Positions 51-13,072 of a stretch of 13,122 nt of DNA are shown piece by piece. The notes under the pieces are model-generated. The model searched no databases. It was given only the letters and a program-made list of their open reading frames with translations, and was not told where the DNA came from. This DNA comes from a virus. The translations under genes were made by a program, and so were the position numbers. Each line of letters opens with the position of its first letter. Position 1 is the first letter of the stretch. The DNA lies in the UHGV virus genome UHGV-0105863, one strand, 5' to 3'.

Positions 51-751
51 TGGTTGATTCATCACTGAATGATCCTGTCGTGGTTCAGGCTACGCGCCTT
101 GATGCTTCAATTTTGCCACGCAATATATTCAGCCAGTCTTACCTGCTGTATGTCATAAATCAGGGTGCTGATGTCGGTGCGATTGCTGGGAAGGCAAATC
201 AGGCTGGTCAGGGCGCTTATGATGCTCAAGTGAAAAACGATGAACAGGACGTCGAACTGGCAGATCACGATTCAAGAATCACCGCAAACACAAAAGCGAT
301 AAATCTCCTTGAGGTCAGGTTAACAACCGCCGAAGGGAAGATAGTCGTACTGCGTAGCGATGTTGATTACTTGCTGGATGAGGTTATCGATATTCAGGCG
401 CATCTGGTCACTGTTGACCAAAGACTGGATGACGTAGAAAACGATGTCTCTGGCATTAAGAGTGATTACGTATCGAAAACCGTAACCGAATTGCAGTCTC
501 TTGCGTCACCGCTGGATGTAAAAACATCATATTCAGTTGATGGAATTCAGGTTGTTGGAGCAAGAAATACCGGATGGACTGCAGCCACAGGTACGCCACT
601 TCTTGGCTCATTCAACGCTAACCAGTCATACACTGTCGGCACTACGTACACACAATCCGAAGTCGCAGCTCTCGCTACAGGTTTGCAGCAGGCGCGGCAG
701 CGTATTCTGGCGCTTGAAACGGCACTTAGATTACATGGGCTGATTGACTGA
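50..751 (+). CDS. Tail needle / plug protein, P22 gp26-like (233 aa)
   Basis: ORF of 233 aa. N-terminus [25 protein letters not shown]..., a central heptad-rich coiled coil, and a C-terminus ...LRLHGLID match my memory of P22 gp26 (also 233 aa). Position immediately upstream of the gp14/gp7/gp20/gp16 block agrees with P22 order. Confidence 0.88.
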
Positions 752-1206
752 TGATTACATTCAAACCAACGCGAAATATCGACCTGATCGAAGCAGTCGG
801 AAATCACCCTGACATTATTGCCGGGAGCAACAACGGCGATGGATACGACTACAAGCCTGAATTCCGTTACTTTGAGGTTAACGTGCACGGGCAGTTCGGC
901 GGAATTGTTTACTATCAGGAGATTCAGCCGCTAACCTTTGATTGCCACGCCATGTACCTGCCAGAGGTTCGTGGCTTCAGCAAGGAAATCGGGCTGGCGT
1001 TCTGGCGATACATTCTGACTAACACCACCGTTCAGTGCGTCACATCGTTCGCCGCACGCAAATTCCGCCACGGGCAGATTTACTGCGCAATGATTGGCCT
1101 TAAGCGTGTCGGAACCATCAAGAAATACTTTAAAGGCGTGGATGACGTGACGTTTTACAGCGCCACACGCGAAGAACTAATCGACTTCCTGAATCACGGG
1201 AGATAG
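751..1206 (+). CDS. gp14-like protein (151 aa), between needle and ejection proteins
   Basis: The ATG overlaps the gp26 stop (TGATG at 749-753), indicating translational coupling. Assignment is by synteny with P22 gene 14; I do not recognise a specific motif. Confidence 0.65.
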   Translation: MITFKPTRNIDLIEAVGNHPDIIAGSNNGDGYDYKPEFRYFEVNVHGQFGGIVYYQEIQPLTFDCHAMYLPEVRGFSKEIGLAFWRYILTNTTVQCVTSFAARKFRHGQIYCAMIGLKRVGTIKKYFKGVDDVTFYSATREELIDFLNHGR

Positions 1207-1208
1207 CC

Positions 1209-1898
1209 ATGTTATATGCATTTAAGCTGGGCAGAAAACTGCGCGGCGAGGAACCTTATTGCCATGAAAAAGGCGGGAAAGGTGGGTCCGATAAAAGCGC
1301 AAAGTATGCAGCAGAAGCTCAGAAGTATGCCGCAGACCTGCAAAATCAGCAGTTCAACACCATCATGAACAACCTGAAGCCGTTTACTCCTCTGGCTGAT
1401 AAGTATGTCGGCAGCCTCGAGAACTTATCGTCTCTGGAGGGGCAAGGTCAGGCACTTAACCAGTATTACAACTCTCAGCAGTATAAAGACCTTGCAGGTC
1501 AGGCTCGCTATCAGAGTCTGGCGGCAGCGGAAGCAACAGGTGGATTGGGTTCCACTGCAACCGGTAATCAGTTAGCAACAATCGCCCCAACGCTTGGCCA
1601 GCAATGGCTATCTGGACAAATGAACAACTACCAGAATCTGGCAAATATTGGTCTTGGCGCACTGCAAGGTCAGGCAAACGCCGGGCAAACATATGCCAAC
1701 AACATGAGTCAGATTTCACAGCAAAGCGCGGCGCTGGCTGCGGCAAACGCCAACCGACCGTCAGCATTGCAGCAGGGGGTTAGTGGTGCTGCATCCGGTG
1801 CGCTTTTGGGTGGTGGCATAGCCAGTGCTCTCGAGCTATCAACTCCGTGGGGTGCTGGTATCGGTGCTGGTCTTGGTCTTCTTGGCTCGTTGTTTTAA
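1209..1898 (+). CDS. Ejection (injection) protein, P22 gp7-like (229 aa)
   Basis: 229 aa, N-terminus MLYAFKLGRKLRGEE...KGGKGG, Q/N/G/A-rich body and a glycine-rich hydrophobic C-terminus, as in P22 gp7 (same length from memory). Start is 2 nt after the gp14 stop. Confidence 0.85.
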   Translation: MLYAFKLGRKLRGEEPYCHEKGGKGGSDKSAKYAAEAQKYAADLQNQQFNTIMNNLKPFTPLADKYVGSLENLSSLEGQGQALNQYYNSQQYKDLAGQARYQSLAAAEATGGLGSTATGNQLATIAPTLGQQWLSGQMNNYQNLANIGLGALQGQANAGQTYANNMSQISQQSAALAAANANRPSALQQGVSGAASGALLGGGIASALELSTPWGAGIGAGLGLLGSLF

Positions 1899-1908
1899 GG
1901 GGTAATCA

Positions 1909-3384
1909 ATGGCTACGTGGCAACAGGGTATTAATTCTGGTGGTTTTCTGGCTGGCATCGGTACGCAAAATGAGAATGCGCCAAAGGCAAGCGACATTAA
2001 CGCAACGCTTGGTCTGATCCGCGAAAACAATGAACTGGCTCGATCAGGTGCAAATAACGTTGGTCTGACCGCGTTACGTGGTCTGGCTGGAGTTGCTGAT
2101 ATTTACAATCAGGAACAGCAACAGAAAGCGATTAGTGCGTTCAATAAGGTTCACGCTGATGCATGGGCTTCTGGTGATCCATCGGGACTATTTAAGTTTG
2201 CCAAGGAAAATCCAGCGTTTGTTGCGCAGGCACAACAGGCGTTTTCCGGTCTTAATGAGCAGCAACGCAACGATATGGGCGATTTAGCCATGAGGGCTAA
2301 CGTCGCTCTTTCTCAGGGACCGGAAGCCTACAGTAAATTCATTACTGACAACAAGGACAGGTTAAATCGCGTTGGTGCTAATGCTGACTGGATGATTCAG
2401 ACAGGTATTCAGAATCCAGAGCAGCTATCACACATGCTGACTACTATGTCTCTCGGTGCACTTGGGCCAGAAAAGGCGTTTGCTGTTCAGGACAAGATGG
2501 CTGGTCGGGATATTGAGCGCGGCGAGTTGGCAGAGACAATCCGCAGCAATAAGGCTGGCGAGGCACTTCAGGCGAGAGGGCAGGATATTAGCCGAGCAAA
2601 TGCGTTAACGTCAGCATATGCACCAACAGCCGCAATGCAGAATTACAATCAGTATGCGCAAATGTTAAAGGCGGATCCAGAGGGGGCAGCGGCATTTGCG
2701 GCAGCGGCGGGAATTAATCCCAACGCTAAGAAATTACTTAAGGTTGAAACCAATCCTGATGGCTCGGTAACTAAGTATTACACCGATGGAAGCGAGGAAG
2801 CCGGAAAACTAAACCAACCTATATCTGGTGATGGTATTAAACCAATTAGCTTGCCACAAGCGCAAAGCATCATAGATAAGGCTAATGAGGGTTCCAAGAA
2901 GGCGGCAGGATTTGCTTTGCGATTAAAAGACTCAATGGACTCAATGAATCAGCTTAGTAAAAGCATTGACCCTAAGCGAGTTGCATTAATAAATCGCTCT
3001 CTTGGTGATGGGACTATTGCAAATTTAAGCCTATCACCAGCGGAGCAGCAATATATGGTAAATGCGAGAGACGCCTTGTATGCAATTTTGCGCCCAGAAA
3101 CAGGTGCAGCAATTACTCTGCCAGAGATGCAGGAGTATTCCAAAATGTACCTGCCTCAGCCTGGTGATTCCATGGCTGCTACTGAAACAAAAATGCGAAA
3201 AATGCAGGGTCAATATAACTCATTACGTGGTCAGTCTGGTCGCGTTTATGATGCTTTGGTGGTTTCAAGTGCTGCAAATAGTCAACAACAGAGCAATAGC
3301 CAACAACCGACAAATACCCAACAGCAGCAGAGTCAATCCGGATCATATACCTCAAAATCAGGCATTCAATTTACGGTGGAATGA
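1909..3384 (+). CDS. Ejection protein, P22 gp20-like (491 aa)
   Basis: Long ORF in the position of P22 gene 20, preceded by GGGG 6 nt upstream of the ATG. Ends in a Q/S/N-rich low-complexity tail. The stop overlaps the next gene's start. Confidence 0.8.
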
Positions 3385-5222
3385 TGAAAGTAACTGCAAA
3401 CGGTAAGACATTTACCTTCCCTGATGGTACGAGCACGGAAGATATTGGCACCGCCATTGATGAGTATTTTGCTGGTCAGGCTGTTCAGCAACAAACAGTT
3501 AATCAGGCCAATAATGAACCAGCACGTGAAGAACCATCATTGATGCAACAAGCTGGCGATTGGCTCACAGGTGGTCAAAGTGCAGGGCAAATTGCAGAGC
3601 AGGCTGGTCGTGGTCTGGTAAACATACCATTTGACGTATTGCAGGGCGGCGCAAGCCTGATTAATGCAATCAGTCAGGGGCTTGGTGGGCCAAAAGTATT
3701 GGATGATGTTTATCGTCCAGTAGACAGACCGACAGACCCCTACGCGCAAGCCGGTGAAACAATTGGTGGGTATTTAGTTCCAGGAGTTGGAACGGCAGGA
3801 AGCATGGCTATTGGATCACTGGCAGAGGCCGCAAATCAGAAAGGTGATTTCGCACAAAATGCAGCTAAAAATGCCGGAGTTAACCTTGCCGCTCAGGGTG
3901 TTCTTTCCGCAGCAGCAAAGGGAATAGGGCGTGGAATAACGGCTATAAAAGGTGATATTGCGCCAGAAGTGGCGAAGAAAATTGCCACATCAGAATCGAT
4001 GGGCGTGACACCAATGACATCTGATGTTATCCCGCCGAAAAACGCTTTCACTCGCGGACTTACTCAGGATGCTGAGGGGGCTTTGCTCGGGACAGGCTCA
4101 AAGCGAGCGGAGCAATATGCAACGCGTAGTAAGCTGGTAAGTAATTATTTTGACCGTTTTGGTGAGTACAACCCTGATGATGTGGTGAAATCTCTTACCA
4201 CCACGTTAAGGGGGCGGAAGGATGCCGCTGGCGCTGTTATCAATGACGTCACCAATAAAATGGGTAATGCCGCAGTTGATACCACAAATACCATGAATGC
4301 TCTGAATACAGCGATCGCAAGACAGGAACGGCTTGGGACGTCTGCCAATCAAAGCCTGCTTACATCCTTGCGTAACCTACGTGAAGAATTAGCAAACCCT
4401 GCAACTGATTTGGATGTTACGTTTGATCTCTTGCGTCAGCACAGAACAGCATTTAGATCTAATGTTCAGGGAGATGCTATGGTCTTCCCCAACCAGGCAA
4501 AAGCAGCTACCAATATGGTAGAGAATGCAATGTCAAAAGACCTTCGTAATGCAGTTGCTAAAAACCTCGGTGCATCAGACGCAGCAAAATACCTTAAAGC
4601 AAATTCCGATTATGCAAACGTTTATAATAAGGTGCTTAATAAAAACATTGCCAACAAGCTCAACAAGGCAAGCAGTGAAGCCAGTCCTGAACTTATAAAT
4701 ACCGTTGTATTAAGCAGAAAACCATCTGACGTGAAACGAATCTGGAGCGCACTGGATGATAAGGGGAAAGATGCTATGCGTGCAGCTTACGTCAGCAAAA
4801 TAGCGGAAAAGGCCGGGTACTCTCCAGCCAAGTTCATCACTGAAGTTAATAAGCTGAAATCTCAGTCAGGCGGTGAAATTTACAACACTATTTTTTCTGG
4901 AAAGCACATGAAAGAGCTTGATGCTCTTCATGAAGTTCTACAGCAAACAGCAAGGTCAGACACCGCAAATGTAGTAACTCAGACGGGGCAATCGCAAGCC
5001 AACAGGATAAGGACGATTGGCGCAACTGCGACCCTTGGCGTATCAATGGGGCTTGAGGCTGGTTTTGGTGCAATGATGCGCTTGTATGAGTCCAAAGCAG
5101 CAAGGAATGCTCTCTTACGTCTGGCAAACACTAAAACTGGAACGCCAGCCTATGAAAGAGCATTAAGTAACGCTGCAAATGCCATCAGACCGCTGCTTGC
5201 CACTGAGGCAACACAGCAGTGA
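3381..5222 (+). CDS. Ejection protein, P22 gp16-like (613 aa)
   Basis: ATGATG at 3381-3386 overlaps the gp20 stop TGA at 3382-3384. Size and position match P22 gp16 (about 609 aa from memory). Last gene of the ejection-protein block. Confidence 0.85.
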
Positions 5223-5239
5223 CTAAATGCCATGGATGG

Positions 5240-5428
5240 TTATTTCCTTAGCACATGAAACAATGTTTGCTTTAATTCCACCCATACAATTATGACCACT
5301 ATAGACAGACAAAAGAAACTGAATGCATTGGCATCACGATCGAAACCTTCTCCGGCACTAAATCCGTAAAAGGTCATAAAAAATATAAAAATTGCGCACT
5401 TTGCAACGTTTACAAATTTTTTCTTCAC
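5240..5428 (-). CDS. Small predicted membrane protein (62 aa, two hydrophobic segments), GTG start
   Basis: In-frame GTG at 5428-5426 (minus strand) is preceded by a perfect AGGAGG (plus 5434-5439), 5 nt upstream. Translation is VKKKFVNVAKCAIFIFFMTFYGFSAGEGFDRDANAFSFFCLSIVVIIVWVELKQTLFHVLRK. The 134-aa version in the ORF track would run antisense through the HExxH gene and has no RBS. Confidence 0.5.
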   Translation of the reverse strand: MKKKFVNVAKCAIFIFFMTFYGFSAGEGFDRDANAFSFFCLSIVVIIVWVELKQTLFHVLRK

Positions 5429-5458
5429 ACCAACCTCCTTAGTTTTGAGCAGGATACC

Positions 5459-5824
5459 ATGAAAAAAGTTAACATTGGAAACGTACCAAAGATGCTCGTT
5501 CCGCTCTTTGAGAGCGGTACAATTGTGTTTTGTAGAGACTTTCCAGAATGGCAACGCCTGCATCAAAAACTTGGTGTGGACGTGCAGGACTCGGATGCCA
5601 ACGGAGCGTCTCATACAATGAGCAGCGAGAATGGTGTTTTGCATGTGATAGGCGTGTTCAATGGCAAACTATCTACTATTGCCCATGAGTGCGCTCACAT
5701 GGCATTCGATATCTGCTCAAGGGTCGGTGTTGATGTTGAACCAGGAAGAGCCAACGAGACTTACTGCTACTTAATGAGCAGGCTTGTTGAGTTCTGCGAG
5801 CGACATATCAAAAAGCCGGAGTGA
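5459..5824 (+). CDS. HExxH zincin-like small protein (121 aa), putative metallopeptidase-fold
   Basis: ATG at 5459 with AGGA 4 nt upstream. Contains IAHECAHMAFDI (an HExxH motif) with glutamates about 20-25 residues downstream (VEPG, NETY) that could act as the third metal ligand. Stop lies inside a hairpin followed by a T-rich tract. Confidence 0.7.
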   Translation: MKKVNIGNVPKMLVPLFESGTIVFCRDFPEWQRLHQKLGVDVQDSDANGASHTMSSENGVLHVIGVFNGKLSTIAHECAHMAFDICSRVGVDVEPGRANETYCYLMSRLVEFCERHIKKPE

Positions 5825-5846
5825 CCCGGCTTGATTATTACTTTTT
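5808..5846. terminator. Hairpin between convergent genes, candidate bidirectional terminator
   Basis: AAGCCGG (5813-5819), 6-nt loop, CCGGCTT (5826-5832). Downstream on plus is GATTATTACTTTTTG. On minus only about 3-5 U follow the stem, so it is weaker in that direction. Confidence 0.45.
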
Positions 5847-6017
5847 GCTGTCTGGAGTTCGCTTATCTAATACCCAGCCATGACCTGGCTGTGTTGTTGG
5901 CGGAAGCCTTTCGTTGTCCTTGACGGTGGCAAAATTGTCTTTCTTACCGCCGCGCGGGCCAACCTCTTGGTATATTCCGCCGTTTTTTCCTGTGTTTTCA
6001 CCTGGTTTTTTCGCCAT
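5838..6017 (-). CDS. YjzC-like small protein (59 aa)
   Basis: ATG at 6017-6015 (minus) with GAGGT 7 nt upstream. MAKKPGENTGKNGGIYQEVGPRGGKKDNFATVKDNERLPPTTQPGHGWVL... matches my memory of the YjzC-like small protein family (G-x-Y-x-E-V-G ... P-x-T ... G-x-W). The MLRYI start at 6032 in the ORF track has no RBS. Confidence 0.6.
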   Translation of the reverse strand: MAKKPGENTGKNGGIYQEVGPRGGKKDNFATVKDNERLPPTTQPGHGWVLDKRTPDSKK

Positions 6018-6094
6018 GATATACCTCAACATACACCCGTTATTGGGCGATTAAATATTGATCTCATTTTATAAGTAGTCAATATGGCCCAGGC

Positions 6095-6127: not shown

Positions 6128-6310
6128 TTAGTCACATTCTATTTCTTTTGTCGAGGTCCATACATAAGGATCTGAGCAAACAACCTCTCCATTTATCATG
6201 ACGTCATAGCCCATTAGATATGAGTTACCACCAACAACCTGGGCGGCGATGACGCTAATGCTGGCGGCGCAGGCTGCACCAAAAACGAAACCAATTAATA
6301 TATTTTTCAT
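6128..6310 (-). CDS. Small exported protein (60 aa) with N-terminal signal peptide and two Cys in the mature part
   Basis: [24 protein letters not shown] is a signal-peptide-like N-terminus without a canonical lipobox. The mature part of about 36 aa has Cys at positions 45 and 59. The gene has its own terminator. Confidence 0.55.
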
Positions 6311-6341
6311 TTTGATTCCAAATAGTTATAGGATGAAAGTT

Positions 6342-6527
6342 ATGACCATAGAAGAACGCCTGAACAACATTGAGTTGAACCAAACCTTGCTTGACCAGCG
6401 ACTTTCAGATCTTGAGCTTAAAGATCTAGATGCGCAAATATCAGAAGCAGAAGCCAAGCTCTCCAGCTTAAACCACCGTAAGAAGCAAATCCGCAACAGA
6501 ATTACTCAGGGACGCGGAAGCTGTTGA
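6342..6527 (+). CDS. Small coiled-coil protein (61 aa); alternative start at 6333
   Basis: AGGA at 6330-6333, 8 nt before the ATG at 6342. Translation MTIEERLNNIELNQTLLDQRLSDLELKDLDAQISEAEAKLSSLNHRKKQIRNRITQGRGSC has heptad-like L/I spacing. The 3' end overlaps orf69 convergently by 26 nt, so reality is uncertain. Confidence 0.4.
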   Translation: MTIEERLNNIELNQTLLDQRLSDLELKDLDAQISEAEAKLSSLNHRKKQIRNRITQGRGSC

Positions 6528-6711
6528 GGTGGGATGCTAGGTCTCTATCGTTAAAATCAAGGCTGCTAATCATTTCATTGTAAATGGCGTTTTTATCTTC
6601 CATTGGCAGTCTTGAGTAAACCAGACACAGAGCATATTTCAGGGAGTTTAGCTCTTTCTCTAGCTCTTCCTTGCTTGACGTTGTTGACTTAATAAACTGT
6701 TTTTTATTCAT
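6502..6711 (-). CDS. Hypothetical 69-aa protein, translationally coupled downstream of mnt
   Basis: Its ATG (plus 6711-6709) overlaps the mnt stop (ATGA), and AAGGA lies 6 nt upstream inside the mnt 3' end. Translation MNKKQFIKSTTSSKEELEKELNSLKYALCLVYSRLPMEDKNAIYNEMISSLDFNDRDLASHLNSFRVPE is acidic and helical. Confidence 0.6.
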   Translation of the reverse strand: MNKKQFIKSTTSSKEELEKELNSLKYALCLVYSRLPMEDKNAIYNEMISSLDFNDRDLASHLNSFRVPE

Positions 6712-6959
6712 TTTGCATCCTTACCATACATGGTCTTTAGCGTCTCAACATCGTGTTCAAGATCTATCAATCGTGATGCTATAGTTGCAAGGTCTAGTGC
6801 TTGAATGTGTTTATTTTTTTCGGTCCACGCTTCAAGTGCCGCGACCATCTCAGCATTTAATGAACGAGAATTAGCCTCAGCCAGTTCAATAAGACGTTCC
6901 TTTATCTCTACAGGAAGCCTCAGATTCACTTGAGGGTTTTTGTACTTACGATCAGACAT
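6708..6959 (-). CDS. mnt: Mnt-like ribbon-helix-helix repressor (83 aa), maintenance-of-lysogeny repressor of the immI region
   Basis: 83 aa, the same length as P22 Mnt. The N-terminal RHH signature NLRLPVEIKERLIELAEANSRSLNAEMVAALEAW is followed by a helical C-terminus. It is divergent from arc-ant, as in P22 immI, with AGGA 7 nt before the ATG. Confidence 0.85.
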   Translation of the reverse strand: MSDRKYKNPQVNLRLPVEIKERLIELAEANSRSLNAEMVAALEAWTEKNKHIQALDLATIASRLIDLEHDVETLKTMYGKDAK

Positions 6960-6987: not shown

Positions 6988-7016
6988 AGGATATGTAGGT
7001 ATCTATTGACTATCAA
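6988..7016 (-). promoter_or_regulatory. Candidate Pmnt (minus strand): TTGATA, 17-bp spacer, TATCCT
   Basis: The -35 is the reverse complement of plus 7011-7016 and the -10 is the reverse complement of plus 6988-6993. It lies about 20-30 nt upstream of the mnt ATG. The -10 is weak (4/6). Confidence 0.35.
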
Positions 7017-7025
7017 TGCGTACCT
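6997..7025. promoter_or_regulatory. Imperfect 29-bp palindrome AGGTA-n3-ATTGA-CTA-TCAAT-n3-TACCT, candidate repressor operator (Omnt-like)
   Basis: Read directly from the sequence. Centred at 7011, it covers the -35 of Pant and the -35 of the candidate Pmnt. The outer AGGT half-site recalls the P22 Omnt half-site (from memory). Confidence 0.4.
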
Positions 7026-7034
7026 AAATACTAT
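7006..7034 (+). promoter_or_regulatory. Pant-like sigma70 promoter: TTGACT, 17-bp spacer, TACTAT
   Basis: -35 at 7006-7011 and -10 at 7029-7034, about 30 nt upstream of the arc ATG. The -10 is flanked by two copies of ATGCGTACC (7016-7024 and 7037-7045). Confidence 0.55.
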
Positions 7035-7303: not shown

Positions 7304-8227
7304 ATGAAAAGTATAGCAACAGCAGTATCTACTATCAATGTACCATTCCACGGCGCAGAGCTTTATGTTGTCAATCACAACGGCGAACCGTATACCCCAA
7401 TGAAACCTATCGTTGAGGGAATGGGGCTAGACTGGAAATCTCAACATAAGAAGATTTCTCAACGCTTCTCGAAGGGTATGGTGGAAATCACCATACCTTC
7501 TGCCGGTGGGGTGCAAGCCATGATTTGTATGGCTTTACGAAAATTGGCAGCTTGGTTGAACAGCATCAGTCCTAACAAAGTCCGCCCTGAAATCCGCGAC
7601 AAGGTAATCCAGTATCAGGAAGAGTGTGACGATGTGCTCTACGAGTACTGGACTAAAGGCCATGTAGTTAACCCACGCAAAGCTAAAAAGGCGTTGCCGG
7701 GTAAAATCACCACTGAACAGCAGGAAGCCATTAAACAACTCGTCATGAGTCGCGGTCAGTCTCTGCCAAAAGAAAAACAGGCGAAGGCGATGATCACCAT
7801 GTGGTCGTCACTGAAATCCCATTTTGGATGTTCGTACAAAGAAATCAGTGATGAGCAGTTTACCGAAGCACTGTCACTTGCTGCTCGCGTTCCGCTTGAA
7901 GGTGAGTTCATTGGCAAACAAGAGAAGAAAACCAACGAGCTTTCTGCAAAAGAAGCAAACAGCCTTGTATGGCTATGGGATTATGCCAACCGCTCACAGG
8001 CATTATTCCGCGAATTGTATCCGGCGCTAAAACAAATTCAATCGAACTATTCCGGCAGATGTCATGACTGCGGTTATGAGTTCTCCCGTATTATCGATAT
8101 GGCGAGAGACGTTTTAATCAATCACACACGAGATGTTGATATCAATGAGCCAGACGGACCAACGAATCTTTCCGCATGGATGAGACTTAAGAATAAAGAA
8201 TTACCTCCTTCAGTACATAACTACTGA
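7304..8227 (+). CDS. ant: Ant-like antirepressor (307 aa)
   Basis: Lies directly downstream of arc, as in P22 immI. Size is close to P22 Ant (about 300 aa). The N-terminal region resembles the phage antirepressor N-domain by memory. AGGA lies 9 nt before the ATG. Confidence 0.75.
   Translation: MKSIATAVSTINVPFHGAELYVVNHNGEPYTPMKPIVEGMGLDWKSQHKKISQRFSKGMVEITIPSAGGVQAMICMALRKLAAWLNSISPNKVRPEIRDKVIQYQEECDDVLYEYWTKGHVVNPRKAKKALPGKITTEQQEAIKQLVMSRGQSLPKEKQAKAMITMWSSLKSHFGCSYKEISDEQFTEALSLAARVPLEGEFIGKQEKKTNELSAKEANSLVWLWDYANRSQALFRELYPALKQIQSNYSGRCHDCGYEFSRIIDMARDVLINHTRDVDINEPDGPTNLSAWMRLKNKELPPSVHNY
7310..7338 (-). promoter_or_regulatory. Psar-like promoter on minus strand: TTGATA, 17-bp spacer, TATACT
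   Basis: The -35 is the reverse complement of plus 7333-7338 and the -10 is the reverse complement of plus 7310-7315. It is near-consensus and fires leftward across the ant start codon at 7304. Confidence 0.5.
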
Positions 8228-8270: not shown

Positions 8271-8327
8271 TGCCAAAAATTCACCGTAGCCATGCTGCGG
8301 CCATTCCTTGTATCTGGAGCAAATCAA

Positions 8328-10673
8328 ATGACAGATTCAATAAATGCCAATGTTGTAGTGAGTATGCCTTCGCAACTCTTCACTATGGCTCGTTCTTTTA
8401 AAGCTGTAGCCAATGGCAAAATTTATATCGGTAAAATTGACACTGACCCGGTAAACCCTGAAAACCAGATTCAGGTTTATGTAGAGAACGAAGACGGTTC
8501 TCACGTTCCTGTTTCGCAACCAATCATCATTAACGCTGCTGGATATCCGGTATATAACGGACAGATTGCCAAGTTCGTTACTGTGCAAGGGCATTCTATG
8601 GCTGTTTATGATGCGTATGGTGCTCAGCAGTTCTATTTTCCTAATGTGCTAAAGTATGATCCAGATCAGTTTAGGCAGCAGCTTGCAGTAGTTGATAGCA
8701 ATGTATTGATTTCTGGTGTTCCAGCAAAAGATGTTGTAAATGCCAAAACTGGACGAGCACCAGTAGTTATGACTCGAAAAGTTACAGACCTTCTTCTTGA
8801 TGGTAAGGCTGGGTTGCGTAAAAACTTTGGTGCTGTAGGCGATGGTAGTCATGACGATACACAGGCATTTAATGATCTGTGGGATGCGCTTATGGATCCG
8901 ACATATAAACGCCGCGCAATAGAAACAGACGAGGTTGGTCTGCCATTTATGATACAAAAAGGCCCAGCACTTCTAATTGAAAATGGAACGTTTATTTACA
9001 ATGGGCCTGGTCTCAATATTGAAACATCAGATTCATTTGTATTTAACATATCAGGTGAGAGCAGTATTTCAACAAAGATACTTTTACCAGATGGAGTATA
9101 CCTATTCGATTTCGATAATAACCCTGTTCATGCATATCTAGGGAATATGTCAATTCATGGTGGTAAAGGTGCTGTTCGATACAAATCAAAAGAACGATCA
9201 ACTAACAGCATTCACCTTTTCGAAAATCTTCGCCTGTCGAGATACAAGGAGTGTGGCATAGGGAATAATTCAATCGATATGCCGTATTTCCGAGTGAAGG
9301 GATGCATGTTATACGGGGACCCAGCAAGCCAGACTATTGGTATTTGTGTCTCTGGTTACTCTGCTGGCGGCTTCATTGAGGACTGTGTTATCAGCGACAA
9401 TAGATATAATATAAAACTGGCAGTTGGTGATAATGGCGTGGAGCGTAATGGCCCTGCAACGCCTTTCTATGTCTGCAGGAACGACATGTACCGCACGGGG
9501 CGACGAGCGCCATCAGCATCGTATGACATATGGATTGAGCCTGGTGCTACTACCATCAACTCTGGGAGAGGTATTCAGATAATCCAAAATAAATTTGGGC
9601 AAGAAAACCTAATCGCACCAGATACTCATGTTTTGATCGCAGATGCTGCCGCTACAGGGAGCGGGTTAAATCTCAATGGAGATCGCGCTCATATAGAAAC
9701 ACAGTCAGTTGGTTTTGTGTCTGGCTTACGTTTCGAGGGGAATAACGTAAACTCAGCTAATAGTGGATATATTGCCCCTTTCATTCGCTCATTTACGCCA
9801 AACCTTGGAAATAACAAAATAAATGACCTTTATGACAATGACATGCCAGCAAGAATCATAGAGTTCGCGGGTGGCATAACCCAAAGTCAAATGACTAACC
9901 TTTCACGTACCAACGTCTTTAGTGCAGCCCAATGCATTGCGCTTCAGAAGGGTGTTGAACCTAAGTTGTTATCTAACCTTAATGATGTCTTCCGGCTTGA
10001 GGATCCTTTGGGGTTCTACGTCGGGCATCCTCAAGCTCAGGTTTTACCGTCAGGTTCTCAGCAGATTGGATTTGAATTGATCTACTCTGGGCCGACGTCG
10101 ACGATTGGGGTGAGTAACGCAACAAGATTATCGGTAAATAACTCATATGGAGGGATATCGGAAGCAACTGAAATCACAATGACCGCTTCTGATGGCGTGG
10201 CAGTTGCCACTGTTGTTGGCGGACTTGCTGGTAGGAAGCACTGGATTGATTTCGAGCTTAAGCGCGGGACAACAAACCCTGTTGGTTCTGTTGTTGTGGA
10301 GATAATGGATGCTTCCGGGTCAGTTCTCCAACTTCGTCGTATTATTTTAATAGACACTTTTCCACGCTGGCAGAAAGTCGCCATTCCTTATGTTCCAAAT
10401 GAAGACGGTAATATTGTAGTCAAATTCAGATCTAATCTTTATTCGGCTGGAACGGCAACTAACTTTATTGTCGGAAATCTCAATGTTTACAGGAATGAGG
10501 AGCGAGTCAATACAGGGCATAACTCAGGATTGAGGATGCAATGGAATCTACAACATACCGTAAGAGGTACAAGACACGAGTGGTATGACGCGTCAGGTAA
10601 TTTACGCTCCAAAAATGGGGTGCCGAGTGGGGATGCCGATGGGGTAATCATTAGCGCTAACCCAACATTGTAA
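8328..10673 (+). CDS. Tailspike protein (781 aa): P22-type head-binding N-terminal domain fused to a right-handed beta-helix receptor-binding domain
   Basis: Start taken at ATG 8328 ([12 protein letters not shown]...) with GGAG 8 nt upstream; the ORF-track start at 8292 adds 12 residues absent from P22 gp9. The first ~115 residues (..[34 protein letters not shown]...[14 protein letters not shown]......VLKYDPDQ) match P22 gp9 from memory. Downstream is unrelated and contains [19 protein letters not shown], a typical pectate-lyase-fold motif. Confidence 0.9.
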
Positions 10674-10976: not shown

Positions 10977-11905
10977 TGTGATTTCCATCACCGGCGTCCG
11001 ACTACGTCGAGCAGCTACTGTCCGTTAACTCGATATGCAATGTTGGTCCTAACACATTGTTGCTTGAAACCAGTGGTGGATATGCCGTGGTTGATGTCTC
11101 TCTGAAACTTAAGCAGAGATGTCAGGTGATGGTCTGCTATGAAGCACATAATCAGATAGCGAAGCTTATGGGGAAATCTTTGATAACGGAGGATGGAGAG
11201 GCGATCGAGGGAGAGGCCCTGGATGATGTCACCGTTGCCGTCGTGGTGACGCATATTATCGTGGATGTGAGAAGTGACAGCGTAGCAGTATAAGGCAGAC
11301 CCACAATCAGGGACTACCGATTTTGATTACTCCACCTTTTCATCAAGCCAATCTGCCCACCATTGCATCATTTCTCTGCATTTATCGTAGTTGATGCAAC
11401 ACTATCACACTGTAATAGCTTATTACTGGTTTGCAGACAGGTAGGCATGAACAGATACCTGCGCATGAAGACGGAACTAGTCCAGATGTGATATTTGTGG
11501 TGATCACATACATCATCAACGATGCTCGTTATGGTGAGTTTGATGACTACCCACTGAAGTGAAAATTGTGTTGTGTACCAAATTGCGTACCAAACTAAAA
11601 TCACAAATTATGAAACCCTTGTTCATGGCGGCTCTCAGGGGTGTTGCGCGTAATCGTGAAACAAAAAGGTAGATTGTTGCTTACCGTCATTCATCATTAG
11701 GTTAAATCCGTTATTTCTGCTGTCTGCCAGAGTATCAAATATCACCGTGCTAATCAGCTTTAGCGCGACAATTTGGCAGCGAGTGACAACAGATCATGTC
11801 AGATAAAAATGAGATAGTAGTCACATTTTCTTGCACTTTATTCCAGCCAGTTCATAAGTATTTCCGTAAAAAGAACAGCTATTTGAAACACCTGAGGGTT
11901 TGCTG

Positions 11906-13072
11906 TTGAAACGCCGTCTTATTATTGCTGCTTCTTTGTTCGTTTTTAATTTATCGTCTGGTTTTGCGGCGGAAAACATTCCTTTTTCACCTCAGCCTCC
12001 AGAGATTCATGCCGGGTCCTGGGTATTGATGGATTACACCACCGGTCAGATTCTCACTGCGGGTAATGAGCATCAACAGCGCAATCCCGCCAGCCTGACA
12101 AAGCTGATGACGGGCTATGTCGTGGATCGCGCTATCGATAGTCATCGCATTACGCCAGACGATATTGTCACCGTGGGGCGTGATGCGTGGGCGAAAGATA
12201 ATCCGGTGTTTGTCGGTTCTTCACTGATGTTTTTGAAAGAGGGCGATCGCGTATCGGTACGTGATTTAAGCCGAGGTTTAATTGTGGATTCCGGAAATGA
12301 CGCTTGTGTTGCTCTGGCTGACTATATTGCCGGTGGGCAACGGCAGTTTGTTGAAATGATGAACAACTATGCCGAGAAGCTGCATCTCAAGGATACGCAT
12401 TTTGAAACAGTGCATGGTCTGGATGCACCTGGCCAGCATAGCTCGGCTTATGATTTAGCCGTGCTTTCTCGCGCTATCATCCACGGCGAGCCCGAGTTTT
12501 ATCATATGTACAGTGAGAAAAGCCTCACCTGGAACGGTATCACCCAGCAAAACCGTAACGGGTTATTGTGGGATAAGACCATGAATGTTGACGGCCTGAA
12601 AACGGGCCATACTTCTGGTGCCGGGTTTAATCTTATTGCTTCGGCTGTAGACGGGCAGCGTCGCCTCATTGCAGTGGTAATGGGTGCTGACAGCGCAAAA
12701 GGTCGTGAGGAAGAGGCAAAAAAATTACTGCGTTGGGGGCAACAAAACTTTACTACGGTGCAAATTTTGCACCGTAGGAAAAAGGTCGGTACGGAACGCA
12801 TCTGGTATGGTGATAAAGAAAATATCGCCCTGGGAACGGAACAAGAGTTCTGGATGGTGCTACCGAAAGCCGAAATTCCACATATCAAAGCCAAATATAC
12901 CCTTGATGGTAAAGAGCTCACCGCGCCAATTAGCGCCCATCAGCGGGTAGGGGAAATTGAACTTTACGACCGTGATAAACAGGTGGCGCACTGGCCGCTG
13001 GTTACCCTGGAATCTGTCGGGGAAGGCAGCATGTTTTCTCGCCTGAGTGATTATTTCCACCATAAGGCCTGA
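11906..13072 (+). CDS. dacD: D-alanyl-D-alanine carboxypeptidase DacD (PBP6b), host chromosomal gene
   Basis: Start taken at TTG 11906 (MKRRLIIAASLFVFNLSSGFA signal peptide) with GAGGG 7 nt upstream, giving 388 aa; the ORF-track start at 11900 gives 390 aa. Contains the class A PBP motifs SLTK (SxxK), SGN and KTG. I recognise the sequence as enterobacterial DacD. Confidence 0.9.
   Translation: MKRRLIIAASLFVFNLSSGFAAENIPFSPQPPEIHAGSWVLMDYTTGQILTAGNEHQQRNPASLTKLMTGYVVDRAIDSHRITPDDIVTVGRDAWAKDNPVFVGSSLMFLKEGDRVSVRDLSRGLIVDSGNDACVALADYIAGGQRQFVEMMNNYAEKLHLKDTHFETVHGLDAPGQHSSAYDLAVLSRAIIHGEPEFYHMYSEKSLTWNGITQQNRNGLLWDKTMNVDGLKTGHTSGAGFNLIASAVDGQRRLIAVVMGADSAKGREEEAKKLLRWGQQNFTTVQILHRRKKVGTERIWYGDKENIALGTEQEFWMVLPKAEIPHIKAKYTLDGKELTAPISAHQRVGEIELYDRDKQVAHWPLVTLESVGEGSMFSRLSDYFHHKA

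Follow-up and report, generated by a model that had tools for sequence, protein, structure and literature searches.

The interval between the ejection gene 16 and the tailspike gene 9 of P22-like phages was named the 'ant moron' in the epsilon34 genome paper, which gives two of its genes, hkcC and 59a (orf59a), as being of unknown function and describes polymerase initiated at PLate as crossing the moron into the tailspike gene (PMC2629481). At the left end of this interval in HK620, gene 16 is followed by the minus-strand gene hkcB, which 30 bp separate from the plus-strand gene hkcC; a bidirectional terminator and hkcD/orf59a come next. The curated P22 records place sieA at 13336-13830 (minus strand), a sieA promoter at 13861-13891 (minus strand) and the mnt terminator at 14212-14234, followed by orf59a; the P22 open reading frame (ORF) at 13861-14223, left unannotated in several of the P22 records, is hkcC. 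Literature searches for hkcC gave annotation-level mentions only, and a deletion study of P22 left both hkcC and orf59a untargeted. Here, we analysed the corresponding region of the virus genome UHGV-0105863 in a stretch of 13,122 nucleotides (hereafter, the window), in which an earlier note had singled out, as a divergent pair, two back-to-back genes, one for a small membrane protein and the other for an HExxH protein.

The window is a P22-like (Lederbergvirus) prophage, and the locus is the left end of its ant moron, the immI accessory region that separates gene 16 from gene 9. Genes of the gp14, gp7, gp20 and gp16 families span positions 751-5222, and downstream of them are encoded a minus-strand Arc/Mnt-like repressor (6708-6959), the antirepressor Ant (7304-8227) and a Head_binding tailspike (8292-10673); the hallmarks of an ant moron, namely, gp7/gp20/gp16 upstream and a Head_binding tailspike downstream, together with mnt, ant, hkcC and orf59a, are all present. 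Between 5426 and 6099, the window is 99% identical at the DNA level to P22 13828-14501, and the homology begins exactly at the GTG start codon of the minus-strand gene, from which sieA has been replaced leftwards. Compared with P22 (sieA/hkcC) and HK620 (hkcB/hkcC), the locus occupies the same position between genes 16 and 9, encodes an identical HkcC protein and has the same 30-bp spacer, Shine-Dalgarno (SD) sequences, GTG start, downstream hairpin, orf59a and mnt/ant core, whereas the gene opposite hkcC encodes a 62-amino-acid (aa) two-helix protein in the window, SieA (164 aa, three transmembrane (TM) segments) in P22 and HkcB (109 aa) in HK620 (PMC2629481; BK000583, AF527608, NC_002730). 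The back-to-back layout itself is textbook P22 and is already published for both phages; what is new here is the minus-strand gene, which makes the locus a cargo variant of a known arrangement. We consider it probable that the left end of the ant moron combines an hkcC module with an exchangeable gene in the slot facing it, and that the two share control DNA rather than a function.

The geometry reported in the earlier note is confirmed in the sequence. The GTG occupies 5428-5426 on the minus strand and the ATG of hkcC lies at 5459, leaving a gap of 30 bp (5429-5458) in which each gene has its own SD sequence, AAGGAGG (a strong one) 5 nt ahead of the GTG and AGGA 4 nt ahead of the ATG. The minus strand reads ...ctAAGGAGGttggtGTG, with the stop codon of the 62-aa ORF at 5242-5240, and the plus strand at the start of the 121-codon hkcC reads gcAGGAtaccATG. 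A longer, 134-aa reading of the minus-strand gene (5240-5644, with an ATG at 5644) was rejected as an antisense run-on into hkcC, the extension being absent where the 62-aa unit has other contexts.

To place this arrangement among its relatives, we read the minus-strand gene in each of 80 IMG/VR loci that encode HkcC at 99-100% identity. In all 80 loci, a minus-strand gene starts 30 bp upstream of hkcC (34 bp in the lipoprotein type), and the spacer is nearly identical throughout (ACCAACCTCCTTAGTTTTGnGCAGGATACC), so that the divergent arrangement is far from chance. Column conservation climbs from about 0.5 to more than 0.97 inside the spacer, a few bases from the start codon, and 81 sequences are 100% identical over the first 30 bases of hkcC. 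On the other side of this boundary, the slot genes fall into 11 families with no detectable mutual similarity: a 161-aa lipoprotein (18 loci), SieA and a 129-aa secreted protein (11 loci each), a 109-aa protein with a TM segment and a coiled coil and the HkcB type (nine each), a 75-aa two-TM protein (eight), a 106-aa protein (five), the 62-aa protein of the window (four), and proteins of 68, 99 and 149 aa (two each). All 11 families have a hydrophobic N-terminus, be it a signal peptide, a lipobox or a membrane helix, and the 62-aa protein is the smallest of them. The slot, with gene 16 on one side and hkcC on the other, is a hot spot of cassette exchange. Furthermore, where the 62-aa gene and hkcC occur together (L016-L019), an unrelated 74-aa two-TM gene (4380-4604 of L016, minus strand) replaces orf59a, and hkcC therefore has variable slots on both flanks.

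The 62-aa gene is AT-rich (GC content of 34% versus 47% for its neighbours), and its product has hydrophobic stretches at residues 4-26 and 32-57, which AlphaFold2 (AF2) models as two helices with low confidence (predicted local distance difference test, pLDDT, 68). Phages JEP4, phiv205-1 and UPF_BP1 have the gene directly after gene 16, at 99-100% DNA identity and without annotation, and lack hkcC; altogether, it is unannotated in the four phage records and one RefSeq Escherichia coli genome checked. It is preceded by a same-strand repressor-like gene in JEP4 and closes the mnt operon in UPF_BP1. Variants 77-81% identical to it, all of exactly 62 aa, occur in Salmonella, after the 161-aa lipoprotein gene, and in Serratia prophages, after mnt and a Rap1a-like gene. 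In every case, the gene is the last one on the leftward strand and ends 17 bp from the stop codon of gene 16. The ratio of nonsynonymous to synonymous substitution rates (dN/dS) of the ORF is 0.16-0.42, the lowest or near-lowest among the six frames, and the loop GEGFDRD is invariant among the variants. The 62-aa ORF is therefore a real gene, as the earlier note had assumed, and is under purifying selection. The Salmonella variant (L010 3969-4003), which follows the lipoprotein gene, comes with an SD-start of its own, GGAGGTTAGTGTG, which is almost identical to that of the slot, AAGGAGGTTGGTGTG (window 5426-5445); such microhomology could have been the route by which the 62-aa gene joined the spacer at the start codon.

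Judged by where its gene lies, by its composition and by its type, the 62-aa protein is most likely a prophage-expressed inner-membrane factor for superinfection exclusion or envelope modification. The membrane gene replaces sieA at the start codon and keeps the sieA upstream signals, in line with the lysogen-type exclusion function suggested for it in the earlier note. Like SieA of P22, the product is a predicted inner-membrane helical protein, and its gene is convergent with that of the ejection protein which SieA is proposed to block; unlike SieA, for which 3-4 TM helices and the motif FxRYPxEAxxFNK have been described, it has two predicted helices, about one third of the size and no significant similarity (PMC10883804). 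The candidate assignment as a miniature SieA was rejected given a BLASTP E value of 0.27, the lack of the motif, the two hydrophobic stretches and the length of 62 aa. The sole local similarity between the two proteins, at residues 132-158 of SieA and at chance level, aligns the GEGFDRD loop with the SieA motif. Small membrane exclusion proteins are also encoded by phage morons, HK97 gp15 being an example. As in such morons, the 62-aa gene is a small AT-rich gene on the opposite strand of a late region, with a hydrophobic two-helix product that would be expected to be expressed from the prophage; unlike in such morons, the putative promoter, the SD sequence and the start codon come from a conserved module next to it, and the exchange of cargo takes place exactly at the start codon.

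The promoter of the slot gene would lie inside hkcC, since the sieA promoter of the P22 records maps to the very beginning of that gene (Table 1). A fragment with 85 bp upstream of sieA gave full exclusion from a single chromosomal copy, and the promoter is termed putative by the authors (PMC10883804). No sigma70-like site reached the threshold of a consensus scan on either strand between 5000 and 6050, and inspection of the minus strand between 5429 and 5560 by eye yielded poor candidates only, such as TTTCCA-19-TATCCT and TTGGTA-19-TTTCAT. An excess of synonymous conservation in hkcC codons 2-31, which would be a sign of an embedded promoter, was not seen between distant homologues, in which synonymous sites are saturated throughout. 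Downstream of the 62-aa gene, the sole leftward terminator-like hairpin (5151-5134) lies inside the 3' end of gene 16, so that the leftward transcript would be antisense to the end of that gene.

HkcC of the window, HkcC of HK620 and the product of P22 13861-14223 are 100% identical, and the window protein matches phrog_1365 with an E value of 1.4e-39. A profile search of 1.84 billion cluster representatives recovered 526 relatives at E <=0.001, nearly all of 100-140 aa, compared with 32 clusters only in a word-indexed search. In 92 relatives, which are 22-44% identical to the query, H76, E77, H80 and E100 are the only invariant residues, and G49, G90 and Y104 are nearly invariant; H76, E77 and H80 are also invariant in 21 close relatives. 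Thus, the HExxH motif spotted in the earlier note is a constant feature of the family. Between hkcC homologues 60-77% identical, the proportion of nonsynonymous differences (pN) is 0.14-0.29 versus a saturated synonymous proportion (pS) of 0.76-0.88, and therefore hkcC encodes a protein under strong constraint. The longer relatives show no Pfam domain fusions, only charged tails; in several of them (P0170, P0152, P0084 and P0076), these are Lys/Glu-rich basic C-terminal tails.

The AF2 model of HkcC, a confident one (pLDDT 88.6, predicted TM-score (pTM) 0.83), consists of strands 11-13 and 21-25, helix 28-37, strands 49-56 and 59-66, and helices 71-88 and 100-116. The HExxH motif lies on the first of the two C-terminal helices (71-88) and E100 opens the second (100-116), both being placed behind a small beta-sheet. 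This order of elements agrees with the zincin-like MPTase core of phage polyvalent proteins, which comprises a small sheet with an N-terminal helix, the HExxH helix and the Glu helix (PMC5512222). The best solved zincin in a Foldseek search was SPRTN (6mdx, E 0.14). A profile search of the PDB returned nine matches, all below the threshold and all of them zincins aligned at the strand and the HExxH motif, and a PDB sequence search with the close-family HkcC profile gave no match. In BFVD, many phage proteins have the predicted fold of HkcC (TM-score 0.6-0.8), of which a few are named SprT-like, metalloprotease or IrrE; two of the proteins named IrrE matched at an E value of 0.025 or worse.

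Two families named in the earlier note as possible homes for the protein did not accommodate it. SprT-like (PF10263) gave no match to the HkcC of the window at E values up to 1 and weak matches in three of the 92 relatives (best E 1e-4), which is marginal at best, and Peptidase M78 (ImmA/IrrE) was rejected given the lack of a Pfam match and a neighbourhood of the slot gene and orf59a, with no helix-turn-helix repressor. HkcC thus resembles the gluzincins, including the MPTase core, and the SprT/SPRTN mini-zincins in being phage-borne and in having an HExxH helix followed by a Glu helix behind a sheet, and differs from them in being a stand-alone protein of 121 aa that no Pfam zincin family and no solved structure matches significantly. 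In SPRTN, the third zinc ligand is a His, not a Glu. Based on the invariant residues and the model, HkcC is a predicted zincin-like protein of the gluzincin type, outside SprT, M78 and any named family, and may be a zinc-dependent catalyst.

As for its expression, hkcC is co-oriented with gene 16, and the DNA upstream of the spacer differs between phages, so that any hkcC promoter located there would not be conserved. In lambdoid and siphovirus prophages alike, hkcC is on the strand of the late genes. The gene and its relatives are co-oriented with late genes at four positions of the late operon: after gene 16, as in the window; in the interval from the lysis genes to dec or terminase, in ST64T, L, mEp021 and prophages of Mixta, Kluyvera and Pantoea; between the tail tube and tape measure genes, in siphovirus prophages of Rosenbergiella, Klebsiella oxytoca and Xenorhabdus; and in the ant moron of Morganella P22-like prophages. 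Given the lack of a conserved promoter of its own, the absence of any plus-strand terminator-like site in a scan from the gene 16 stop to the hkcC stop, the late-strand orientation and the late transcription that crosses the ant moron, read-through from the late operon is the likely source of hkcC expression, as the earlier note had offered as an option. The note's expectation of a promoter inside the partner gene is supported for the slot gene, by way of the putative PsieA. Contrary to the note, hkcC is not the last gene of the late operon, as late transcription continues to the tailspike gene 9 (PMC2629481). Late transcription across the locus would run antisense to the slot gene, as the note had pointed out.

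The commonest companion of hkcC is not the divergent membrane gene but the convergent orf59a. In 69 of the 80 P22-like loci, orf59a is convergent after hkcC, with the hairpin at 5813-5832 in common, and it follows hkcC in each of eight additional prophage loci examined (three siphovirus tail clusters, one Proteus and one Pasteurellaceae prophage, and three Morganella P22-like ant morons). The gene is absent from the remaining 11 loci, and relatives without hkcC are found in Salmonella bongori prophages and Pseudomonadota contigs. The association is therefore frequent rather than obligatory, and a functional link is possible. The orf59a product gives a weak match to PF14168 (YjzC; E 0.0029, 18.4 bits, under the 25-bit cut-off), and some more distant relatives carry this domain, several of the UniRef names being YjzC family. 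An alternative upstream ATG at 6032 would extend the protein to 64 aa. The homologue from Klebsiella oxytoca has a promoter-like site upstream, TTGAGA-16-TAATAT. The hkcC and orf59a unit is also located inside siphovirus tail clusters, between the tail tube and tape measure genes (L096, L097 and L102-L104).

Taken together, these observations point to the following scenario as the probable one. Late RNA polymerase would read on from gene 16 through hkcC towards gene 9, and HkcC, a soluble protein of about 14 kDa, would act in the cytoplasm during the late phase of the lytic cycle. The 30-bp spacer and the beginning of hkcC would at the same time serve, on the opposite strand, as the signals of the slot gene, that is, the putative PsieA, a strong SD sequence and the GTG, and the 62-aa two-TM protein would probably be produced by the lysogen and reside in its inner membrane. 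Several points weigh against this reading. The single-copy sieA insert that conferred exclusion was co-oriented with the gal operon (PMC10883804), and the consensus scan found no sigma70-like site on the minus strand at 5429-5600, so that PsieA stays putative. The selection estimate for the 62-aa ORF is based on about 20 substitutions, and one control frame is equally low. Neither the 62-aa protein nor HkcC has a Pfam, NCBIfam or PADLOC match, and no transcript, protein or activity data were found in the literature for either gene in any phage. Finally, late expression is not universal for the HkcC family, because in a Schitoviridae (N4-like) phage the gene for a relative of HkcC comes first in a block of small hypothetical genes that runs opposite to the neighbouring terminase gene. 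A more elaborate version, in which the hkcC module is more than a passenger, its 5' end and the spacer being a fixed docking site (promoter, ribosome-binding site and start codon) for unrelated exclusion or envelope genes, and in which late HkcC, as a zinc peptidase, clears lysogen-expressed Orf59a or the slot cargo at the lytic switch, strikes us as quite improbable.

Among the alternatives, a functional pair, in which the membrane protein is a substrate, anchor or inhibitor of HkcC or the two are toxin-antitoxin-like and stay back to back for the sake of co-regulation, would account for the strict conservation of a 30-bp divergent layout with overlapping control regions. However, a virtually invariant hkcC faces at least 11 unrelated partners, the 62-aa gene exists without hkcC in JEP4, phiv205-1, UPF_BP1 and Serratia prophages, and the siphovirus-prophage relatives of hkcC have no divergent membrane gene; the two are therefore not a coupled pair, and the proposal, largely refuted by this independent assortment, retains hardly any probability. 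The earlier note had also linked HkcC to the ejection proteins. Made together with them, HkcC might be delivered with the virion, or act as soon as a cell is infected, and attack proteins of host defence as a protease, much like the zincin-like peptidase domains of phage polyvalent proteins. That hkcC shares its strand with the ejection genes 7, 20 and 16 and comes directly after them fits this idea, as do the basic C-terminal tails of some long relatives, but the link is not specific, since other relatives lie between lysis and terminase genes (ST64T, L and mEp021) or between tail tube and tape measure genes, away from ejection genes. Moreover, to our knowledge, HkcC is not in the well-studied set of P22 virion proteins. 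In injected polyvalent proteins, no domain is commoner than the zincin-like MPTase, but the MPTase clades of these proteins are presented as a group of their own (PMC5512222). On balance, we consider virion delivery or such early action improbable.

It is also conceivable that the functional unit consists of hkcC and orf59a, with a lysogen-expressed small protein and a late peptidase that target each other, or some third partner in common, and so form an enzyme-inhibitor pair or a lysogeny-to-lysis switch. The convergent arrangement around a common hairpin in most P22-like loci and all the further loci, and a promoter-like site of orf59a's own in two very different contexts, speak for such a unit, whereas the loci without orf59a (including L016-L019 with the 74-aa membrane gene instead), the orf59a relatives without hkcC and an orf129-type subfamily without orf59a speak against it; furthermore, co-transfer may merely reflect the common terminator. 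We regard this as unlikely. Finally, the 62-aa ORF might be incidental, and the leftward transcript an antisense RNA into the 3' end of gene 16. In BTP1, the lysogen-expressed antisense RNA STnc6030 excludes BTP1 itself, and the escape mutations are antisense to the gene 16 homologue, at its 3' end (PMC7067206). STnc6030 resembles the 62-aa unit in being a leftward, lysogen-type unit that abuts the 3' end of a gene 16 homologue in a P22-like prophage, the exclusion role being that of BTP1; yet BTP1 lacks an ant moron and STnc6030 contains no ORF longer than 60 aa (PMC7067206), unlike the window with its conserved 62-codon ORF and strong SD sequence. The constant distance from gene 16 and the sole leftward terminator-like site inside gene 16 are consistent with an antisense role. 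Against it, the ORF stays open at exactly 62 codons in the 77-81% identical variants, with conservative substitutions, low dN/dS and an invariant loop, and has a strong SD sequence 5 nt from its start; furthermore, the same unit is joined to gene 16 C-termini just 58% identical at the protein level, contrary to sequence-specific pairing. An antisense RNA is, in our view, very unlikely. The reading of an hkcC module and an exchangeable slot gene that share control DNA is the one we retain.

Table 1. Features of the gene 16-orf59a region of UHGV-0105863 (window coordinates)
Feature	Position	Strand	Basis or remark
Gene 16 homologue (ejection/DNA transfer protein, 613 aa)	3381..5222	+	phrog_770, E 2e-279; syntenic with gene 16 of P22; bounds the variable slot on the left
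Convergent spacer of 17 bp, gene 16 stop to 62-aa ORF stop	5223..5239		distance constant in every locus with the ORF or its variants
62-aa gene, predicted two-helix membrane protein, GTG start, cargo of the 'sieA slot'	5240..5428	-	phrog_21338, E 5e-45
Spacer of 30 bp holding both ribosome-binding sites	5429..5458		near-identical in 81 sequences; DNA left of the spacer unrelated
Equivalent of the putative sieA promoter annotated in P22, in the first 31 bases of hkcC	5459..5489	-	mapped from P22 13861-13891
hkcC, soluble predicted zincin-like protein, 121 aa	5459..5824	+	identity to HK620 HkcC; phrog_1365
HECAH motif (H76/E77/H80), codons 76-80, predicted helix 71-88	5684..5698	+	invariant in 92 relatives
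E100, candidate third zinc ligand, start of predicted helix 100-116 (ANETYCY)	5756..5758	+	invariant in 92 relatives
Bidirectional hairpin terminator common to hkcC and orf59a (t_mnt in P22, tORF59A in HK620)	5813..5832		scan, both strands; P22 and HK620 annotation
orf59a, hydrophilic YjzC-like protein, 59 aa, convergent with hkcC	5838..6017	-	phrog_3202; weak PF14168
orf59a promoter-like site, TTGACT-17-AATATT	6054..6082	-	scan

Beyond orf59a, the window differs from P22 and HK620 in carrying extra small genes before mnt; three small genes lie at 6128-6711: a 60-aa protein with a signal-peptide-like start (6128-6310, minus strand), a 61-aa plus-strand ORF at about 6342-6527 that belongs to phrog_7586 and has E. 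coli RefSeq relatives named hemolysin XhlA family, and a 69-aa ORF (6502-6711, minus strand). Genes for Rap1a/Tai-family immunity-like and ClpP-like protease proteins recur beside mnt in various P22-like ant morons (L012, L013-L016, L099 and L110). Further to the right, divergent and overlapping promoter-like sites at 7006-7034 (plus strand) and 7016-6988 (minus strand), a minus-strand promoter at 7338-7310 inside the 5' end of ant and a terminator with a 14-bp stem at 7270-7239 match the layout of Pant/Pmnt and the sar antisense RNA of P22. The 390-aa ORF at 11900-13072 is a host D-alanyl-D-alanine carboxypeptidase (PF00768 and PF07943), and therefore the end of the prophage lies between the tailspike stop (window 10674 on) and about 11.9 kb; there is no gtr operon after the tailspike, and no tRNA gene was found in the window.

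For HkcC, which has been listed as 'unknown' since the HK620 and P22 annotations, the present analysis allows a description as the founder of a large family of phage-borne mini-zincins that stand alone, with a predicted active site formed by H76, E77, H80 and E100, and corrects its pairing, as orf59a rather than the divergent membrane gene most often accompanies it. The slot beside hkcC, in turn, is a catalogue of candidate exclusion genes, with at least 11 unrelated families of small envelope proteins in 80 loci. SieA, the sole characterised occupant of the slot, blocks DNA injection, and each of the families is a candidate for a new mechanism of superinfection exclusion.

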